DNA of 64,000 nucleotides, taken from positions 3,291 through 67,290 of the IMG/VR virus record IMGVR_UViG_2912865023_000006; one strand, given 5' to 3'. A program made the translations under genes and the position numbers. Below the pieces are notes generated by a model, which saw only the letters and a list, made by a program, of their open reading frames with translations, was not told the DNA's origin and searched no databases. The DNA comes from a virus. Below, piece after piece: positions 2,836-55,784 of the stretch (within the stretch, counting starts at the first letter, position 1; each line of letters starts with the position of its first letter).

Positions 2836-5397
2836 TTACCGCATAAAAATAACGGCTACACCGTATCCCTTTTCGGAATCGTAAGCCGTCTCAATTCGCA
2901 TTACTTTAAAGCCGTCATTGTCCGCTGTTTTCGTTGCAATACCGTCGGCGCCCGCCGTAACTCTATCGCCTACTCTGACTGTGTCGTCAATGCGTACGTG
3001 TATTTGCCCGATAAGCCCGACGATATGCCATTCCATGCGTTCATCACGCGGAATATATTCGAGAGTCGGATCGTAGTTCGGATTCTCTTTCGGTACAGTC
3101 AGCTCGCGACCATTCTCGATGATTGTTTCGTAGATCATGCCGCCAAACTCGTTACGTAAGAACCGATCATTCCAGTAAAAACCCGCGCCTCCCAATACAA
3201 CGCCCGCAGTTTCAGATATAATGCCGTCCACGCTGTCTCCTGGCTGTGCTTTTCGGATTTTATCGCCTTCGAGCGTTACCATGAGACCGGAATCAATTCT
3301 ATGTCCGTCCAGTGACTCGAAGTATTCCGCGACGTCTTTAAAGTCTGAAACACTTTCGACCCGGCCGACGCCCTGAATGTTACCGTTCATGGAGTCGATC
3401 TTCCATTTGATGTTCCCTGCGGATGCTTCGCCAGAACCATATCCGCCTACAACCGTATAACCGTCATCGTTTATTACGGACTGTGACGATAAGATGGTCC
3501 GGGCCGGGCCGTCGCCCTTTGTATGAGAATTATTCGTTGCGAGAATAGCCTGTCGTGACCCTTCAGTCGATGAGCCTCCCGAAACGCCGCCCATAAAGTT
3601 TCTAGGCCCTTTCGCAACATTCGCTCCCGTAGCCGCAATGATCGCGCTCGTCGGATCTAAAGGTGATCCGCTTGTGGTGGCGCCTTTGAATCCACCTTTA
3701 AAATTCGTAGGGACAACGCTATACGAACGCCCTCCGAGATTTGCCGCAGATGCATACCCAACCGCGTTAATTGCTGCAAGTTCTACTTGGTTGTTCGGAG
3801 AATAAACGCCCATCTCACCACTATCCCCGATCAATGTGGCGCCAATCAGAGAAGCGTTATAAACCCCGCCACCGAACGAAACCCCGATAGGCGAAGATTC
3901 AGAAATTGTAACACCGGATAGCTGTACATAATCCGTTCTTTGCGCGCCGCCAAAAGCTCGTATGTCGTGGCTGGCCGTCTTAAAACCTCGAATCTTAATT
4001 CCATCAACGTTGATATAGCTAGATTTAAATTGAAACGCGACTACCGGGTTGGCCTTGTAATCGTATTGCGGATCGCCGATCGCAGTAAAATTAGAAATTT
4101 GAACGTGCTTATAGGCTGAGATAACCAGCGCTCTCGGAGAAATATCTGCGTATAAACTATTAAAGACGGGTTCAATTGACGTGCAATTTGCGAATGTCAC
4201 ATGATACGCAGATGTACTCTCAGGATCAGTCTCGCTATGATGGGCGATGTGTCTTGCATCGTAAGAACGAACGTCCCTATAAGAAACATGATTCGTCACA
4301 TGGATGTTTTGCGATGCCGGCCATTCTTTGTGCGCCTTTACTTCGACGCCTCGAATGTTTCCGCTCGTATAACAGCCGTCTACCCAAACATTTTTTGACC
4401 CGTCATCAATTTCGATCCCATTCGAATTAGCAGCACCTGCCGGGTGCGCCTTTCCGCTAGGGTTCATACAATGCGAATTTGAAATGAAAATGTATTCGCT
4501 ATAATGTGTCGTAATCCCATCGTCACCGTAACCGGACGCAACGCAGTTATCCAGCCAAACGTAATATGATCCGTCAGCCGTATAATTTTCCGCAGTATTG
4601 TCGTATGTCGGAGCCGTTATATCGAAGCCGTGTAGGCCGGGGTTTACCGCCTCTACGTCCTTAATCCAACCGAATTTTACTTTCGCGAAAGTTAAGCAGC
4701 TCGAATTTATACCGCCCGTCGCAGTCACGCCGCCTTGTCTATCCGGGTTCCAATCGAGCGTCATCCCCTCTACGTAGATATTGCGGTTTCCCCCGGCATG
4801 ATCAGCGTTCGTAATAACCCACTCGCTGGCCGGCGTATCTTCATGTAACTTCAGCGTGGTAACGCCTTTTCCTTGACCGATAAGATACGTCCATGATGGG
4901 AGTTTAGCGCCTTTGATGACGTATTCTCCCGCTGATAAATTAAGGCGCACCTTGCCATTACCGAGGGCCCTTACGAAAGCATCCGTACTATCCGTTTCAC
5001 CAGTAGGATCGGCGCCATAATCGTCCACGTTTACGTTGCGTTGGATCTTTCGGAGCAACTTGTAATACTCTTTATCGAGCCGCTCTTTTAATAGAGGTTC
5101 GATGTTACCTTCCGCATCGACGCGGGCGTCTACCACCTCTTTTACGTTCGTTCCGTCTGCGTTAAGAATCAAGTTTTTTATACGGTTATACAGACCGTCT
5201 ATATATGTGCGCAAAGAAAACCCGCTATGGTCAATCTGATCTGACGTATGGGCATGTTCTGCGGTCTTATGGCGGCTCAAATCGTTACTCAGATCGAGCA
5301 TGTCGTTGCCGATGTCTTCGAGGTTTTGGTTGTAGTTCTTGATATACTGACGGTCAAATCCGCTAGTATCAGCTTTCTTATATGAATATTTCCCCAT
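2836..5397 (-). CDS. Tail spike / pre-neck-appendage-like protein with beta-helix and peptidase G2 autocleaving chaperone domain
   Basis: VNVDDYGADPTG beta-helix start, C-terminal DVAEYFE motif and GLIGQIHVR as in phi29 gp12-type proteins. Confidence 0.85.
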   Translation of the reverse strand: MGKYSYKKADTSGFDRQYIKNYNQNLEDIGNDMLDLSNDLSRHKTAEHAHTSDQIDHSGFSLRTYIDGLYNRIKNLILNADGTNVKEVVDARVDAEGNIEPLLKERLDKEYYKLLRKIQRNVNVDDYGADPTGETDSTDAFVRALGNGKVRLNLSAGEYVIKGAKLPSWTYLIGQGKGVTTLKLHEDTPASEWVITNADHAGGNRNIYVEGMTLDWNPDRQGGVTATGGINSSCLTFAKVKFGWIKDVEAVNPGLHGFDITAPTYDNTAENYTADGSYYVWLDNCVASGYGDDGITTHYSEYIFISNSHCMNPSGKAHPAGAANSNGIEIDDGSKNVWVDGCYTSGNIRGVEVKAHKEWPASQNIHVTNHVSYRDVRSYDARHIAHHSETDPESTSAYHVTFANCTSIEPVFNSLYADISPRALVISAYKHVQISNFTAIGDPQYDYKANPVVAFQFKSSYINVDGIKIRGFKTASHDIRAFGGAQRTDYVQLSGVTISESSPIGVSFGGGVYNASLIGATLIGDSGEMGVYSPNNQVELAAINAVGYASAANLGGRSYSVVPTNFKGGFKGATTSGSPLDPTSAIIAATGANVAKGPRNFMGGVSGGSSTEGSRQAILATNNSHTKGDGPARTILSSQSVINDDGYTVVGGYGSGEASAGNIKWKIDSMNGNIQGVGRVESVSDFKDVAEYFESLDGHRIDSGLMVTLEGDKIRKAQPGDSVDGIISETAGVVLGGAGFYWNDRFLRNEFGGMIYETIIENGRELTVPKENPNYDPTLEYIPRDERMEWHIVGLIGQIHVRIDDTVRVGDRVTAGADGIATKTADNDGFKVMRIETAYDSEKGYGVAVIFMR

Positions 5398-30478: not shown

Positions 30479-30587
30479 ATACACTTGCCACGATTGCAAT
30501 TACGCTAAGTTAGATATCGAAATCAAGCCGGACGCGCGCTGCCCTACGTGTGGTACGCGGCTGGAAGTAGAGGAGGAAATCGTATGA
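30471..30587 (+). CDS. Small zinc-ribbon protein (38 aa)
   Basis: MIEYTCHDC...RCPTCG; coupled to both neighbours. Confidence 0.65.
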   Translation: MIEYTCHDCNYAKLDIEIKPDARCPTCGTRLEVEEEIV

Positions 30588-31021
30588 AACGTTTAGTTAA
30601 ATCGCTCGTAATCACCGCAACCTTATTAACCGGCACTATTGCGTTGGCTCCGCAAGCTGACGCGGCATGGTCGGGATGGCAGACGGAGAAGTTCGGACAC
30701 AAGGCGCGGGTATATACGAACGCAACCACGTACAGCAGTAGCGCAAGCACGGTCGACTGGAAAGCCGAAAAGAAAGACGGCGTCACACTGTATTATACGG
30801 CAGGCGTTTATAAAAAGCGCAGCGGCGGCGGTCTGACTGACACCGGCTTAGTACAGCGCGGAAGCTTCAAAACGGCAACGCCTCTGAAGTCGTTTAGTGC
30901 GAAGTCGATCCGCAGCAAGACCGGAAAAGGCACATACGTTATCCAGATCGACTGCTATTCGGATTCAGGCAAGCGCAAATACGTCGGTACGTTTGAGTCA
31001 GCGAAATTCAACGTTAAATAA
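30584..31021 (+). CDS. Secreted hypothetical protein
   Basis: Start moved to MKRLVKS (GAGGAGG RBS); Sec signal ending ADA-AWSG. Confidence 0.8.
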   Translation: MKRLVKSLVITATLLTGTIALAPQADAAWSGWQTEKFGHKARVYTNATTYSSSASTVDWKAEKKDGVTLYYTAGVYKKRSGGGLTDTGLVQRGSFKTATPLKSFSAKSIRSKTGKGTYVIQIDCYSDSGKRKYVGTFESAKFNVK

Positions 31022-31151
31022 TGAACGAAATGAGCCGTTTCAAGCTTTCGGATACCTGTCGTACCTGAACGCGTCTGAGGCGGCTCTCTCGTTGTAATTT
31101 CGTGATATAATCGTTCTATACAACGATGTAGGACACGGAGGTACAGCGAAA

Positions 31152-31331
31152 ATGGAGGAAAAATACGAGACTAACGGCCTTGATACGTCGATCACTTACG
31201 AATACAAGGAATTTCCGGACAAGCGCGCAGGACGATGCGACAATTGCGATTATACGCTGTTCAAAAGCTCGGTGAAGAGCGGGAAGTTTTTGCGCGAATG
31301 TAGAAGATGCGGTATGAAAAAGAATATTTAA
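31152..31331 (+). CDS. Small zinc-ribbon protein (59 aa)
   Basis: GGAGG RBS; MEEKYETNG...RCDNC...ECRRCGMKKNI; extended -10 TGATATAAT upstream. Confidence 0.75.
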   Translation: MEEKYETNGLDTSITYEYKEFPDKRAGRCDNCDYTLFKSSVKSGKFLRECRRCGMKKNI

Positions 31332-31335
31332 ACGC

Positions 31336-31369
31336 AAAAAGAAAGACGCCTTAATGGGCGTCCTTTTTC
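31336..31369. terminator. Bidirectional intrinsic terminator
   Basis: A-tract, GACGCC-ttaatg-GGCGTC stem, T-tract; lies between convergent genes. Confidence 0.85.
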
Positions 31370-31372
31370 GTT

Positions 31373-31426
31373 TTATGCTCCTCTAACGATACTTTCTAGC
31401 GGACTAGCTCCCCGTGGCATTCCCAT
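31373..31426 (-). CDS. 17-aa peptide MGMPRGASPLESIVRGA carrying two arbitrium-like hexapeptides (GMPRGA, SIVRGA)
   Basis: GGAGGTGA RBS (GGAGG 8 nt before ATG), TGGTATAAT extended -10 (TATAAT at 31460-31455), terminator immediately downstream. Confidence 0.8.
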   Translation of the reverse strand: MGMPRGASPLESIVRGA

Positions 31427-31455
31427 TCGCCTCACCTCCGACCTACATAGTAAAA

Positions 31456-31884
31456 TTATACCACGCGTGCTTTCCTTTTCGCACCTATATTCGACCATAT
31501 CGCGTCCTGCTTCCGTTTATTCTCGGCAGCTTCCGGAAACATACGAAAAAACTCGGCTTCGTCTTCGATGGGCTTGCGGAAATAATAGACGAGGTTCTTC
31601 GCGCCGCCTCCGTTCTCTACCGTTTGTATTAGCTGCGCCTGGACTAACGTTTTGACTGCGTTACGGTACGTTGAATCGCTCATGGCCAGCGCCCTAGCCG
31701 CCTGTTCTTGCGTTGGAAAGGCGTAACCGTAATCCGCATTATAAAACTTCAGCAGAAACGCGTATACCAACACGGCGTTACCGTTCAGCTTCGGAAAGTA
31801 TTGATAATGCGTTAGAATAACGTTAGGTATGCCCGTATAGCCCGCCGCATTATCAAACGGCAGGGCCTTCGCTTTATCGCTCAT
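31456..31884 (-). CDS. HTH_36-like winged-helix protein (initiator N-terminal-domain-like)
   Basis: YTGIPNVIL...LVYAFLL...YAFPTQEQAARALAMSDSTYRNAVKTL; start moved to MSDK. Confidence 0.8.
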   Translation of the reverse strand: MSDKAKALPFDNAAGYTGIPNVILTHYQYFPKLNGNAVLVYAFLLKFYNADYGYAFPTQEQAARALAMSDSTYRNAVKTLVQAQLIQTVENGGGAKNLVYYFRKPIEDEAEFFRMFPEAAENKRKQDAIWSNIGAKRKARVV

Positions 31885-31915
31885 ATAATCGTCCTCCACT
31901 TAAATAATATTCGAC

Positions 31916-32095
31916 TTAAGCCGGCTTACGGCGCTGCCACTCCGTCAACAAACGATCGAGTTCGGGCGTACGCGCATATTGCCAAAACTTCCGTAAAGTA
32001 TTTTCGTTCAAGCCTACGCAGATATATCGTTGGTCATGGTCGCGCAGGAATTCGTATAGATTCGCAGAATAGCAGTAATAATAACCGTTGTGCAT
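31916..32095 (-). CDS. Hypothetical 59-aa protein
   Basis: GGAGGTG RBS; MHNGYYYCYSANLYEFL...KFWQY...LLTEWQ. Confidence 0.7.
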   Translation of the reverse strand: MHNGYYYCYSANLYEFLRDHDQRYICVGLNENTLRKFWQYARTPELDRLLTEWQRRKPA

Positions 32096-32142: not shown

Positions 32143-32763
32143 CGTATGCTCTACCCTTTCGCCCGTTGCGATATTAACCGTGAATTGGCCGTCTGTACGT
32201 CCGTTAACAAAGTCGTTATAGCGCTTGCGACGTTGCTTATTGAGCGACTTGGCGCGCGCATCAACGAAAATAGATTCGTAAGTTGATAGCGAACGGCGCG
32301 TAGGTTCGGCGCGATTACGGCCCGTTTGATCGTACTCTTCCGCCAGCTTGCCGGATCGCTCTCCGTTCTTGCGCGTCGTTTCCAGGCGTTCGCTCATGAT
32401 CGGATATTCCGCCTTCATTTTATTTTTATTCGTATCGGTTAATTCTTCGAAAAGTACGAGATCTGCCATGCGATCTAACGCGATGGAGTCTGGTTCTTTG
32501 TCCGTCGCGTCCACGTAAGCGTCCGTAAACGCCGTGATTCGTTCTATGCGCGCTACACGATCGGAGATATAAATGGACCGCAAGTCAAGACCGGCGTGCT
32601 CATCGGTCTTATACGCAACAATTTCACCATCAACCAACACGCGATCGCCTTCTTTCGGCCGGCCGGAAACACAGCGCCAAGCTAACGGACCGCCCGTCCT
32701 ATAATCGCGCCTGACTTCGAGCTGTAATTCCGTAATCATTTCGTGCAATAAAGCGTTATCCAT
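32134..32763 (-). CDS. Hypothetical protein
   Basis: 209-aa ORF coupled to the upstream sigma-like gene. Confidence 0.75.
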   Translation of the reverse strand: MDNALLHEMITELQLEVRRDYRTGGPLAWRCVSGRPKEGDRVLVDGEIVAYKTDEHAGLDLRSIYISDRVARIERITAFTDAYVDATDKEPDSIALDRMADLVLFEELTDTNKNKMKAEYPIMSERLETTRKNGERSGKLAEEYDQTGRNRAEPTRRSLSTYESIFVDARAKSLNKQRRKRYNDFVNGRTDGQFTVNIATGERVEHTGA

Positions 32764-33152
32764 TAATTCGTCCCCCTTATCGCGTAGCCTTCGCCGTGGC
32801 TCGCCCAGTAGTAATAAACATCCGTTAACCTATCGACAGCTGCGTTTAAGTGAAATACGACGGCTTGTTGCGTAATGCCTATCCGTTCGCCCGCATCGGT
32901 TTGCGTTAATTCGCCGAAGTAAACGAGCTCAATCGCCTGACGTTGCCGATCCGTTAAGCCGGCGAGTTCAATCGCTTTATGAATGTCGATTAGCACTTCT
33001 ACGGCCGCATAGTCGCCGCAACGCTTCCGGCTGACGAACTTCTGGTAATCGGCGAGTAATAGCTTGACGCCTTCTGCGTTATCTAGCGCATAGGCTGCGT
33101 TAAATTCGCGATCCTTTCGGTGTATGTCCACTCTGACTTTACCTATCTTCAC
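32763..33152 (-). CDS. Sigma-70 region 4-like HTH transcriptional regulator
   Basis: LTDRQRQAIELVYFGELTQTDAGERIGITQQAV; start uncertain (GTG 33152 or ATA 33146). Confidence 0.8.
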   Translation of the reverse strand: MKIGKVRVDIHRKDREFNAAYALDNAEGVKLLLADYQKFVSRKRCGDYAAVEVLIDIHKAIELAGLTDRQRQAIELVYFGELTQTDAGERIGITQQAVVFHLNAAVDRLTDVYYYWASHGEGYAIRGTN

Positions 33153-33705
33153 CAACCCCCTCTGACATGTCGGATGCAAATCTAAAATAAAAGTTTTTTG
33201 ATCTGGATTTTCTTCTCAAGATACACTGCTTAGAAATCGTGTCCCTCCTGACACCAGTCACTTTTGATGCTTCGGCACCACTTTCGTAAGTCGATATCAC
33301 GTGTCCATCGGAACTAATTTGAGAAACAGGCTTTGAGTGTAATTTTTTCATCAACTCTCTATGTCTTTGGGGATCGATTAATCCGGTGCGCCAAGCGTGA
33401 ATCTTATTTTCTCTAGGAGTAACCCACTCTAAGTTGGATACTTTATTATTCTTTTTATTCCCATCCTTATGGTTTACGTAATTTCTCTTCGTGTCTTTTT
33501 TAAGGAAAGCTAATGCAACCAACCTGTGAACACTGACATCTTTTCTGTTACCATTTAACCAGAGGACTACTTGCGAGTAACCATGTTTATCTCTCAGTTT
33601 TAGCTGCTTACCTGTGAGGTGGTTTCTAACATTACCTTGGTTGGAGACTTCGTAAGCGTCTCCACACTCCACCAATCCTTTCAATTTCCTCCACTCTTCT
33701 TTCAA
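33139..33705 (-). CDS. Free-standing NUMOD4-HNH homing endonuclease
   Basis: EEWRKL...YEVSNQGNVRN (NUMOD4), VHRLVA...VNHKDGNKKNNKVSNLEW (HNH), C-terminal NUMOD1-like; AT-rich. Confidence 0.92.
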   Translation of the reverse strand: MKEEWRKLKGLVECGDAYEVSNQGNVRNHLTGKQLKLRDKHGYSQVVLWLNGNRKDVSVHRLVALAFLKKDTKRNYVNHKDGNKKNNKVSNLEWVTPRENKIHAWRTGLIDPQRHRELMKKLHSKPVSQISSDGHVISTYESGAEASKVTGVRRDTISKQCILRRKSRSKNFYFRFASDMSEGVGEDR

Positions 33706-53244: not shown

Positions 53245-53853
53245 TTATTGCGCGATCAAGTAGTCTCGGTAATCGCCGAACTGTTTGGTATCGAAATTGC
53301 GTGAGAGCTTTTCGAGTTTGCGTATGACTGTTGAGTGATGTAGACCCAACTTTTTTCCGATTGCCGTCGGAGTTGGCTTCTCACTCGAAAGATATGCTTC
53401 GGCGATTTGTATTGTCGTTGCGTCAGATGTAGTACCTAATAGGAAGTTGATCAGTTGCCGCTGGTCAACTTCTTTTTTTGTTGTCAAAAGTTCTTCCGGG
53501 GTTATCGTGCAGGGGACCTCGAATGTTGCCGCATCCTTATGGTCTCCTTTTGGTATAATTTCTCTTTTGTTTCTGTTTACCCGCCCCCTTAAAAAATAAC
53601 GCCTCTGTAACGGAACACTTGCATTAAATAACCTTTCAAAATCATGCTCTCCGTTGTACGACTCAATGCAAGAAAGTAAGGTATCTTCATAAATCGCTCT
53701 TGCCTCATAATAATCTGCACCAATTGATTTACCGATTGTTTTGAACTTTCGGTCATTTCTTGTTATGAAGTAATCGTAAACCATCCTAAAAGCAGATTCA
53801 CTTCTACTTTCTTGGTACTTTAATACTTCGCTATTCAATTGTTCTTTTCTCAA
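53245..53853 (-). CDS. Phage sigma-70-family / sigma-like factor
   Basis: Region 2-like AFRMVY...EARAIYEDTLLSC and C-terminal HTH TPTAIGKKLGLHHSTVIRKL; GGGAGG RBS. Confidence 0.75.
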   Translation of the reverse strand: MRKEQLNSEVLKYQESRSESAFRMVYDYFITRNDRKFKTIGKSIGADYYEARAIYEDTLLSCIESYNGEHDFERLFNASVPLQRRYFLRGRVNRNKREIIPKGDHKDAATFEVPCTITPEELLTTKKEVDQRQLINFLLGTTSDATTIQIAEAYLSSEKPTPTAIGKKLGLHHSTVIRKLEKLSRNFDTKQFGDYRDYLIAQ

Positions 53854-54052
53854 TTTTACGTCCTCCCTTTTGCTTACATACGACTATATGCACCTGCTTA
53901 CACAACCGCGCATTTTTTTGTTTGTTTTTTCTCTATGTGTAAATAATACCAAGTATTTTCTGCAATTATCTGAAAACGACACCCTATTTATATAAAAATA
54001 AGTAGCGCGGATACGACCTGAGTATCGTGTTTCGTAGAAGCTTTAGAAAATT

Positions 54053-54083
54053 AAAAAACCCCACAACGTAATGTTGTGGGGTT
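54053..54083 (-). terminator. Intrinsic terminator downstream of aimP
   Basis: AACCCCACAAC-attac-GTTGTGGGGTT then TTTT. Confidence 0.88.
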
Positions 54084-54092
54084 AATAAAAAA

Positions 54093-54224
54093 TTAAGCGC
54101 CAACCCGAATGTCGGCTACCTTATATCCTCCTTCGGTGCTAGCTTGATTCTGTTTATCATATTTAAATGCAAATCCTGCTGCCGCCATCACTACGATTAA
54201 AGTGGCTAATAATATCTTTTTCAA
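54093..54224 (-). CDS. aimP: Arbitrium peptide precursor (43 aa), predicted mature peptide DIRVGA
   Basis: AAAGGAGAGG RBS, TTG start; MKKILLATLIVVMAAAGFAF signal peptide, ends VA-DIRVGA; directly after aimR. Confidence 0.9.
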   Translation of the reverse strand: MKKILLATLIVVMAAAGFAFKYDKQNQASTEGGYKVADIRVGA

Positions 54225-55389
54225 TTAAAACCTCTCCTTTAATTAATTTTTTGAATTTTAGGAATGGTCTAAGCGCTCGTGAGTCAGCTCCTGCTTTCTC
54301 AAGCTCTTTCGCTACTAACCTTGCAAAAAAGAAGTTTTCTTGACAGAAAAAAGACTCTAGGCAATTATACATTACATCTATTGACTTTTCCGCTGTGTTT
54401 TCGAAAAATATTATAAAATTGTCTTTATCGCCCCTCTCTAATATCGTATGTAACTTCGCTAAAGAAATTTTCCCGTTTCTCGCTTTCTGATATGCTCTCA
54501 GCCTGAAGTTAGAATCTTCATCAAGCTCAACGCCGTGAAAGACTTTAGCGAAATCTAAATTGAATTTTGCCTCTTGGATATACTGCAAATCGCCCACTTC
54601 ACGCATTAACTCGTAGCTTTTCCGGAGGTTATACAAACAGACATTTTTATCATCCGGTAAGTACGACATCCCTATAACATAATATGCATCAGATTTCTTT
54701 TTCGCGGATATATTTGCATTAATAATGGATTCAGCAAAATCCCGAGCAGATTTTACATCATTAAGTTGCAAACTAATAGGCGCCAATAATTCACAGACCC
54801 TGAACGTTAAGCATTCTTTATAAAAGGTTTCTCGCGGCCCTAGGTTTGTTATATCCTTCTGGATTTCCGAGACTTCATTTATTATTTTTTGTATGTCACC
54901 TTCAAAATAGTTGTTATACTGTCGAATGATATTCATTAAGATCAAAAGTGGTTTACTTGTTATATTGTGGAGTCTTCCTATTGCATCCTTCAGTTCAAAA
55001 CCGCTCAACGTTCCTACCATATAGTTATAAACAATGCGGTACACTTCCACCGTCTGTTTAAGAACTCCGTCAGTATTTTGGTGAAGTAGTAATAATCTTT
55101 TTAAAAGGGGAGCGTTTGTAGTAATTGCGGAGTATTCAAATGCATTTTTTATTGTTTCTGTCCGTATGATATGCAAACACCATTCTGACAAAATTTCATG
55201 ACTTCCCTTTCCTGTTTCTCTTGAAATCAGTTGAGCGAATTTAATAAGTTTCTTGAAACTTATTTTGCCTTTCTTGAAAAAATCCCTATATGCACTTTCA
55301 CTCATTCCAACAAACTCCATAACATCCGTCTTTTTTATGTCATCGTGGTCTTCAATAAAATCATGCACCATTTTTGTGATGTATTCCAA
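54163..55389 (-). CDS. aimR: Arbitrium receptor AimR
   Basis: 408 aa, N-terminal HTH then TPR-like helices; AFEYSA, YVIGMSYL, AKFNLDFAK; followed by a peptide gene. Confidence 0.9.
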   Translation of the reverse strand: MEYITKMVHDFIEDHDDIKKTDVMEFVGMSESAYRDFFKKGKISFKKLIKFAQLISRETGKGSHEILSEWCLHIIRTETIKNAFEYSAITTNAPLLKRLLLLHQNTDGVLKQTVEVYRIVYNYMVGTLSGFELKDAIGRLHNITSKPLLILMNIIRQYNNYFEGDIQKIINEVSEIQKDITNLGPRETFYKECLTFRVCELLAPISLQLNDVKSARDFAESIINANISAKKKSDAYYVIGMSYLPDDKNVCLYNLRKSYELMREVGDLQYIQEAKFNLDFAKVFHGVELDEDSNFRLRAYQKARNGKISLAKLHTILERGDKDNFIIFFENTAEKSIDVMYNCLESFFCQENFFFARLVAKELEKAGADSRALRPFLKFKKLIKGEVLIEKDIISHFNRSDGGSRICI

Positions 55390-55447
55390 GTGAGCCTACC
55401 TCCTTGATTATCTATTTAAATTCGATCAGCAACTTTTAACTAACTCA

Positions 55448-55477
55448 ATTATAATTATTGCATTATCGATATGTCAA
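55448..55477 (-). promoter_or_regulatory. sigmaA promoter of aimR
   Basis: TTGACA-18-TATAAT. Confidence 0.7.
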
Positions 55478-55538
55478 TAATAATTTTCGGTAGTTTTTGT
55501 TAAAGCGATAATATAAAATATACTGGACACCTTTACGA

Positions 55539-55784
55539 ATGGAGGTGTTTATTACGTTTAAGGTCGGCAAATGTCGGATACCCGAACTATGCAAGAAACG
55601 CGGAATCAGTCTCAGTCAACTCGCAGCAATGGTCGGAGTATCAAAAACGCAAATGTCCGATTACGTCAGCCTTCGGAACCTGCCGAGCATCGAACGAACC
55701 TACAATATCGCAATGATGCTCGGTTGCGCGCCCGAAGATCTGTACGAATGGATTGAGGTATCCGACAGCAACACGGAGGGTTAA
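55539..55784 (+). CDS. Xre-family HTH regulator, divergent from aimR (start possibly ATT 55551)
   Basis: GISLSQLAAMVGVSKTQMSDYV...LPSIERTYNIAMMLGC. Confidence 0.9.
   Translation: MEVFITFKVGKCRIPELCKKRGISLSQLAAMVGVSKTQMSDYVSLRNLPSIERTYNIAMMLGCAPEDLYEWIEVSDSNTEG

Follow-up and report, generated by a model that had tools for sequence, protein, structure and literature searches.

Closest described systems

Arbitrium is a model system for communication between viruses. Its signals derive from AimP, a small precursor encoded next to the gene of its cognate receptor, AimR; mature AimPs are 6 to 10 amino acids (aa) long, and hexapeptides are reported to inactivate the AimRs of clade 2, with a benefit for the emitter. 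The subject of this work is a mini-gene of 17 codons that lies in a 64,000-nucleotide (nt) stretch of viral DNA (the window; positions 3,291 to 67,290 of the IMG/VR record IMGVR_UViG_2912865023_000006), which makes up most of a 68.7-kb provirus. The mini-gene and its relatives resemble AimP in having modules identical to mature AimP hexapeptides and in placing the last module at the C terminus. They differ from it in several respects. The mini-gene product has no Sec-type signal peptide, whereas all genuine AimPs in this set have one; aimP adjoins its cognate aimR, whereas the mini-gene is located at 31.4 kb and the only aimR at 54.2 to 55.4 kb; the product contains several different modules, preceded by other residues; and its signals, as judged from the sequences, never match the carrier's own receptor. 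The product would thus work like AimP, supplying AimR ligands, yet it appears to lack three of the four AimP features considered (signal peptide, adjacency, and cognate receptor).

In natural arbitrium crosstalk, the peptide of one phage similarly represses the AimR of another, with more lysogeny, less induction, and a gain for the emitter as the outcome (Manley et al. 2025 preprint, 10.1101/2025.10.13.681967; Gallego-del-Sol et al., Cell 2026, PMC13220667). However, this crosstalk is a by-product of the phage's own secreted cognate signal, whereas the mini-gene is a separate gene that carries only the signals of others, several of them together. Multi-copy Phr precursors also encode several RRNPP-type signals in tandem in one small gene (Even-Tov et al. 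2016, PMC5199041), but these precursors have secretion signals, adjoin the cognate rap, and serve their own receptor, whereas the mini-gene adjoins an HTH_36 gene and a terminator. ComS/XIP is a 17-residue pro-peptide without a Sec signal that activates a cytosolic RRNPP-type receptor without being exported (Underhill et al. 2018, PMC6211226). In contrast to the mini-gene, which has no receptor gene nearby, ComS is a single bacterial peptide, self-directed and cognate to the adjacent comR. Finally, the Pseudomonas phage DMS3 makes a small product, Aqs1, that puts a signal receptor out of action and thereby helps the phage; as summarized in PMC13389391, it is a folded protein that binds the host LasR, not a copy of a signal, and is not aimed at other phages.

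A family of mini-genes in Bacillus proviruses

The mini-ORF (open reading frame) of the window reads ATG GGA ATG CCA CGG GGA GCT AGT CCG CTA GAA AGT ATC GTT AGA GGA GCA TAA and encodes M-GMPRGA-SPLE-SIVRGA. The preliminary description of this locus, made from the window alone, placed a 17-codon minus-strand ORF between a ribosome-binding site (RBS) and a directly following terminator, and both the reading of the sequence and a terminator-like hairpin bear this out. Relatives were sought in viral contigs with the upstream gene as a protein query, with a back-translated GMPRGA-SP pattern, and with the RBS/start signature followed by the shared terminator. The cassette is found in 14 further proviruses of about 65 to 70 kb, all from isolate genomes, so that 15 carriers are known, including the window (Table 1); the scan with the RBS signature recovers 12 IMG/VR carriers. 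Their products comprise 17 to 39 aa, and none of them contains a hydrophobic stretch. In the window in particular, the product has no hydrophobic N-terminal segment, in agreement with the initial view that it has no signal peptide. Most members contain two to four modules, and the product of L036 consists of one known signal and an N-terminal module.

Table 1. Modules of the mini-gene products, from N to C terminus, and C-terminal ends of the carriers' own AimPs
Carrier	Modules	Own AimP end
Window	GMPRGA + SIVRGA	DIRVGA
L015	GMPRGA + GIVRGA	ANQLGG
L033	GMPRGA + SIIRGA + GPVRGA	EIKVGG
L038	GMPRGA + SASRGA + SPSRGA	
L022	GMPRGA + SIIRGA + SASRGA	DIRVGA
L068 and L069	GMPRGA + SAIRGA + SASRGA	
L005	ELNPGA + GMPRGA + GIVRGA	INAIGG
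L006	ELNPGA + GMPRGA + GIVRGA	
L032	ELNPGA + GMPRGA + SIIRGA + SASRGA	DIRVGA
L007	ELKPGG + GMPRGA + SASRGA + GPVRGV	ANQLGG
L034	EIRPGA + SASRGA + SPSRGA	INAIGG
L036	EIKPGA + SPSRGA	ELRPGG
L035	EIKLGA + SAIRGA + SASRGA	DIRVGA
L037	EIKPGA + SIIRGA + SASRGA	

The C terminus is formed by SIVRGA in the window and by GIVRGA, SASRGA, SPSRGA, or GPVRGA in its relatives; GPVRGV of L007 departs from the xxxxG[G/A] pattern. In the long forms, GMPRGA is internal, and the short form of the window arises by a 36-nt in-frame deletion. The claim that the product begins exactly with GMPRGA after removal of Met therefore holds for the window as a product of this deletion and does not describe a trait of the family.

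The family is seen only in isolate proviruses of IMG/VR and in a few entries of a large protein collection. The latter, with 5.8 billion proteins, contains four more entries, whose cores represent three further variants that no source names; one of these entries lies on a 4.14-Mb NCBI chromosome. Scans of genome and metagenome contigs with the RBS signature match only unrelated taxa, as chance predicts, and a search of genome contigs for related loci with the upstream 147-aa gene found nothing. The mini-gene protein is not named in any of the database sources, PHROGs has no family that matches the mini-proteins, and Rfam finds no RNA family anywhere in the window. In P0012, a long-form variant from the Logan assemblies, GMARGA stands in place of GMPRGA, a single replacement in a first RGA module that otherwise does not vary, and possibly a variant of specificity.

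Coding constraint

Thirteen cassettes were aligned (alignment A4), and substitution patterns in this alignment and in alignment A3 were judged by eye. The -10-like box, the RBS, and the ATG are invariant in the 13 cassettes; L068 and L069 differ by one base just upstream of the RBS. The indels within the ORF are all multiples of three (36, 33, 30, 24, 18, and 12 nt), and outside it there is a single indel, of 4 nt, in the stretch from the -10 box to the RBS. In the GMPRGA-SPLE segment, five codons show synonymous polymorphism (GGA/GGG, CCA/CCG, CGG/CGA, CTA/TTA/TTG, and GAA/GAG), as against one or two replacements. Across modules, RGA is kept with varied codons, namely CGG, CGA, CGC, AGA, and AGG for Arg, GGA, GGC, and GGG for Gly, and GCT, GCA, GCG, and GCC for Ala. 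The window alone already has CGG GGA GCT in one motif and AGA GGA GCA in the other, as had been noted at the outset, and its single RGA-x7-RGA arrangement compares with an expectation of 0.06. Amino acid variation concentrates at hexapeptide positions 1 to 3, which govern receptor specificity in natural arbitrium signals (PMC6458997).

An in-frame upstream extension reported by the ORF finder is broken in L006 and P0011, which both keep the RBS-proximal ATG, so that this ATG is the start codon. DNA similarity to the SPbeta aimP does not extend beyond the six codons, which argues for selection on the peptide and not for a recent capture of aimP DNA. As seen in the sequence comparison, the restriction to in-frame indels, the mainly synonymous change, and the retention of RGA through different codons are decisive for a real gene family that appears to evolve under peptide-level selection, which the two codon sets of the window had first suggested.

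Modules identical to signals of other phages

Six of the module sequences (GMPRGA, GIVRGA, SIIRGA, SAIRGA, SASRGA, and SPSRGA) are established clade-2 signals. GMPRGA was read directly in the aimP of SPbeta, which confirms the original assignment of this module to another phage, and is also the signal of Goe12/13; SAIRGA was read in phi3T. GIVRGA is the reported signal of Goe11/14, and SIIRGA, SASRGA, and SPSRGA are clade-2 signals employed in the crosstalk studies of 2025-26. According to the literature, 80% of the arbitrium peptides whose sequences were known in 2017 fall into six families, and seven peptides cover more than 65% of clade-2 phages. Whether homologues of the mini-gene vary among known AimP peptides had been put forward as a check, and such variation is strikingly evident among the 15 carriers, with their six exact known signals.

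The N-terminal module of the long forms tentatively resembles signals of the carriers' own sister phages. ELKPGG matches ELRPGG at 5 of 6 positions, and EIKPGA or EIKLGA matches EIKVGG at 4 of 6; no match is exact.

Arbitrium systems of the carriers

Each of the ten carriers examined encodes one AimR and a normal AimP that bears a signal peptide. In the window, the aimR and the aimP ending in DIRVGA are located as first described, and this ending matches none of the modules of the mini-gene. The latter is found 22.7 kb away from aimR, with no receptor gene nearby. None of the signals of the carriers (DIRVGA, ANQLGG, INAIGG, EIKVGG, and ELRPGG) is contained in any mini-gene. The DIRVGA-type AimR is shared by four phages (99% identical where measured), yet these four carry four different repertoires, so that the repertoire does not co-vary with the receptor of the carrier.

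In the SPbeta AimR, D360 forms a salt bridge with the Arg of RGA (PMC6458997). An alignment of receptors (A5) shows Asp at this position in SPbeta and phi3T, and each of the five AimR types of the carriers has Asn or Gln there; overall identity in this alignment is low (17 to 19%), and the local anchors F355, F362/L363, and G375 align. On this comparison, the carriers' own receptors look blind to RGA.

Some further features of these systems were noticed. Near-identical phage backbones (window positions 53245-55784; L039-L042, L056-L060, and L088-L091) carry at least 6 AimR/AimP alleles (DIRVGA, DIRIGA, INAIGG, ANQLGG, EIKVGG, and ELRPGG), whose AimRs are mutually 27 to 32% identical. By eye, the arbitrium locus looks AT-rich relative to the rest of the phage. 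Taken together, these features look like frequent horizontal swapping of the arbitrium module. It contains no obvious aimX-like small ORF, and aimP is followed by a 202-aa helix-turn-helix (HTH) or sigma-like gene. In the L032 carrier, the frame of the DIRVGA-type AimR (L056:1450-2595, minus strand) ends early, with 381 aa instead of 408, and thereby loses about 27 C-terminal residues; this receptor may be impaired, with the mini-gene intact.

Proposed function

We propose that the mini-gene would be translated into a leaderless poly-arbitrium precursor, whose modules would reproduce the mature peptides with which foreign arbitrium phages signal, chiefly SPbeta-like phages of clade 2 that share the Bacillus hosts. 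The precursor would be cut into hexapeptides or short extended forms, which would bind the AimRs of rivals, detach these receptors from DNA, and turn off aimX. Rivals that co-infect or superinfect the cell would be steered into lysogeny, and a rival already resident as a prophage would be prevented from inducing. The AimR of the carrier, whose cognate signal is Arg-less, would not be affected. The site of action would be the interior of the expressing cell, either a lysogen or an infected cell. This intracellular route is favored because the product has no export signal, its concentration in the cytoplasm would presumably be high, and unexported ComS provides a precedent. In that compartment, correct cleavage of a small fraction of the product would presumably suffice to exceed the affinity of the receptor.

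What the sequences show is a gene family under coding constraint that contains known foreign signals and does not match the arbitrium systems of its carriers; translation, proteolytic maturation, site, and timing are inferred. The setting is a plausible one for encounters with rivals, as B. subtilis genomes commonly combine prophages with arbitrium systems of clades 1, 2, and 3, and this species is a host of the sister phages as well as of SPbeta and phi3T. A signal-emitting lysogen is reported to raise the lysogeny of a cross-talking superinfecting phage 10-fold and to deflect lytic infection, from which the authors argue that the emitter benefits. AimP peptides also lower the induction of non-cognate prophages.

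Processing and expression

In the SPbeta AimR, Q299, E300, and M296 hold the N-terminal amine of the hexapeptide, and R228 holds the C-terminal carboxylate (PMC6458997). Because both hexapeptide termini are anchored, an intact 17- to 39-mer cannot bind canonically, and the product must be a precursor. For the same reason, the earlier suggestion that the intact 16- or 17-mer acts through its exposed ends is unlikely, and cleavage is needed.

An x-Pro pair (S-P, G-P, N-P, or F-P) follows G[A/G] at 28 of the 29 internal boundaries. Linkers, where present, consist of four residues ending in Glu (SPLE, NPLE, SSLE, and GPAE) or of five ending in Tyr (GPQLY and FPQRY). These regularities suggest a defined route of processing. 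Cutting solely after each G-A would yield exact GMPRGA in the short forms, once Met is removed, together with 6- to 11-mers ending in GA. A double-glycine (PCAT) leader was considered for the MGE[I/L]xxGA start and rejected, as its spacing does not fit the consensus and the short forms have no such segment.

As to expression, contigs from RNA-seq libraries, which have no strand information and might include carried-over DNA, span the cassettes of relatives. In run X17, the contig with the operon and the mini-gene has a depth of 54 and the convergent neighbor one of 170, with a break at the terminator, a pattern expected of convergent transcripts and weak support for transcription. The preliminary description attributed to the mini-ORF an extended -10 element and a separate transcript of about 110 nt. 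The TATAAT box is there; its TG varies among relatives, no -35 element accompanies it, and it shares positions 31458-31456 with the stop codon of the 147-aa gene upstream. With no promoter called and no -35 element, the separate transcript is conjectural, and the mini-ORF may simply be the last cistron of a long leftward operon.

Weighing of the evidence and alternative explanations

Several results speak against intracellular interference with rival receptors. The arbitrium literature searched does not name SIVRGA, the second module of the window, or GPVRGA/GPVRGV as signals; SIVRGA is one residue away from GIVRGA and from SIIRGA. The N-terminal modules of the long forms (e.g., EIKPGA and ELNPGA) provide near matches only, with no exact signal. 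The host genome identifiers of the carriers and of 16 SPbeta-type AimR proviruses in IMG/VR show zero overlap, where less than one was expected, so that this count carries no weight either way. A scan for consensus promoters called none at the cassette, which bears on expression in lysogens. Internal modules would require exact cuts on both sides, and we know of no protease that makes them. Lastly, the nine genuine AimP types of this set all have Ala directly before the mature peptide, whereas the modules of the mini-gene follow mostly E, Y, or M, and also GA, so that the usual route of AimP maturation may not apply.

With these points taken into account, we lean slightly toward the view that the mini-gene interferes with the AimRs of other phages by an intracellular route. 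The evidence appears evenly balanced for and against the fuller picture of a dedicated signal-forgery locus, a fast-shuffling leaderless cassette that would concatenate the peptides of rivals and hijack their lysis-lysogeny decisions, with the carrier itself on a private channel.

The same product could also reach the same targets from outside the cell, released at lysis, cut by extracellular proteases of the host, and imported by neighbors through Opp, so that rival phages would be misled that hosts are exhausted. The known maturation of AimP and Phr, including the multi-copy Phr precursors, is extracellular and followed by Opp import; the C-terminal module needs only one cut, like genuine AimP; conditioned media of one phage alter the behavior of another; and the mini-gene lies at the end of an early/middle lytic gene block. 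The obvious route of export, however, would be a signal peptide, which every genuine AimP of this set has, the P1 residues are unlike those of natural AimP sites, and, by a rough estimate, dilution would leave the peptide at a far lower concentration than expression in the cytoplasm. We regard release at lysis as rather unlikely and yet as the foremost alternative to the intracellular route; with both routes taken together, interference with the AimRs of rivals is the most likely function.

A target in the host, such as arbitrium-sensing pathways, Rap-type receptors, or the Opp permease, would let the peptides change sporulation or development for the benefit of the phage. A 2026 preprint (10.64898/2026.08.23.746533) describes SAIRGA as eliciting a sequence-specific response in B. 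subtilis and promoting sporulation. However, the repertoire follows the range of phage signals, varying at the positions that confer specificity, and does not follow one host-active sequence. Most of the module peptides, moreover, have no known host receptor, and an action on the host appears improbable.

It is still harder to see the peptides as self-directed, that is, as extra ligands that would give the carrier's own AimR, or another receptor of its own, a private intracellular bias to lysogeny. A functional-looking arbitrium system is co-encoded, and ComS shows that an unexported pro-peptide can signal within the cell. Against this stand the four repertoires that accompany the same DIRVGA-type AimR, the overlapping repertoires that accompany five receptor types, the single AimR per provirus, and the lack, in carrier AimRs, of the Asp partner of the RGA arginine.

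A non-functional chance ORF in the spacer before the terminator, or a recombination remnant, is scarcely credible and already contradicted by the comparative data: the ORF is indeed very short, bounded by a short direct repeat at a recombination junction with a swapped upstream gene, and RGA followed by a stop is in itself not rare (3 found, 3.9 expected), but the RBS and the ATG are invariant, indels are in frame, synonymous change predominates, six different known signals occur exactly across 15 carriers, and the cassette is kept behind two unrelated upstream genes.

Novelty and implications

Full-text searches of open-access PMC and bioRxiv for distinctive strings of the mini-peptides returned nothing relevant, and no description of orphan, decoy, or mimic concepts was found in the arbitrium literature of the same two sources. 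There is a substantial chance that the mini-gene represents a new strategy, the dedicated forgery of rivals' signals. In the crosstalk studies of 2025-26, natural signals were shown to let one phage manipulate another. If intracellular interference with rival receptors is confirmed, such manipulation would be an evolved strategy and not a side effect, a weapon at the level of communication between viruses with a logic like that of anti-CRISPRs. Part of the pressure toward diverse AimR-AimP pairs would then be accounted for, and each phage lineage would carry, in its module repertoire, a record of the rivals that it has met. The mini-gene would also supply a natural tool, a small encoded multi-signal cassette with which lysogeny of SPbeta-like phages could be controlled in B. 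subtilis. It raises the biochemical question of how a leaderless polypeptide gives exact hexapeptides, for which the near-universal G[A/G]-x-Pro junction offers a lead.

Genomic context

The features of the locus are listed in Table 2. The mini-ORF is the final reading frame in a minus-strand block of early/middle genes of about 32 kb that includes aimR-aimP. This block stops at the terminator, facing a convergent plus-strand block. The Shine-Dalgarno sequence matches the Bacillus anti-Shine-Dalgarno sequence perfectly, and its spacing is ideal.

Table 2. Features of the window discussed in the text
Feature	Position	Strand	Remarks
Cassette, 83-nt indel unit	31373..31455	minus	Bounded by a short G[T/C]ATAA direct repeat; alignments A1-A3
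Mini-ORF, 17 codons + stop	31373..31426	minus	Sequence read directly; homologous ORFs in 14 other proviruses
Module GMPRGA	31423-31406	minus	Part of mini-ORF
Linker SPLE	31405-31394	minus	Part of mini-ORF
Module SIVRGA	31393-31376	minus	Part of mini-ORF
TAA stop of mini-ORF	31375-31373	minus	
Shine-Dalgarno sequence GGAGGTGA	31432..31439	minus	5 nt before ATG; invariant in the 13 cassettes aligned (A4)
-10-like box TGGTATAAT	31455..31463	minus	TATAAT invariant in the 13 aligned cassettes; TG varies; without -35
Intrinsic terminator, bidirectional	31333..31365	both	Stem 31342-31365, 9 pairs, plus T runs; separates convergent units
Upstream 147-aa HTH_36 / DnaD_N-like gene	31456..31899	minus	Ends at cassette
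59-aa Zn-ribbon-like ORF	31152-31331	plus	Four Cys as two CxxC pairs; directly across terminator
Own aimR	54163-55389	minus	Pfam PF22871, E=4e-26; sole AimR in the 68.7-kb provirus
Own aimP	54093-54224	minus	43 aa, signal peptide, end ...KVA/DIRVGA (slash before mature peptide)

At this locus, the closest relatives among published phages are 268TH007, 268TH002, and phi18-2, all of them temperate phages of B. subtilis (PMC9476937). The cassette is missing from these three and from L003, L004, and L066. In phi18-2, 268TH007, and L066, the stop of the upstream gene (G[T/C]ATAA) directly joins AACGAAAAAGG. The terminator is kept also in sister phages without the mini-gene, and in the five cassette-less relatives that have it (all except L004) the upstream stop codon abuts it.

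The same cassette is found behind two unrelated upstream genes, either the 147-aa HTH_36 type or a DNA-binding gene of 268 to 285 aa. The swap of modules upstream of the cassette (window positions 31456-32095 compared with L001:3111-3965 and L002:3295-4098) has its junction at the stop codon, within GGTATAA. The 147-aa gene is present in the window, L003-L007, and L071, preceded in the window and L071 by an additional 59-aa ORF, and the 268- to 285-aa gene in sister phages and in eight aligned carriers. The possibility that the C-terminal IVRGA-stop is a remnant of the NVKKA-stop gene end of sister phages was rejected, since in these eight carriers (A4) the same cassette follows the intact end.

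Across the terminator, the 59-aa Zn-ribbon gene shares 81% amino acid identity with phi3T_82 and is found in SPbeta as well, showing that the lineage of the window and SPbeta-like phages exchange DNA. The equivalent site of SPbeta has this shared gene and no mini-gene. The homologue in L071 belongs to DUF8096, and the unannotated copy in SPBc2 is located between yopD and yopE. Positions 30749-31025 (plus strand), inside a 157-aa ORF (30548-31021) whose product may be secreted, show 79% nucleotide identity to the Bacillus phage phi105 and about 67% to several B. licheniformis phages, another sign of mosaic exchange near the convergent terminator. On the other side, in the same operon as the mini-gene, a NUMOD4/HNH_3 homing-endonuclease-like gene (33139-33705, minus strand) overlaps the start of a sigma-70 region-4 gene (32763-33179); 268TH007 and phi18-2 have a DNA methyltransferase gene instead, upstream of the sigma-factor gene.

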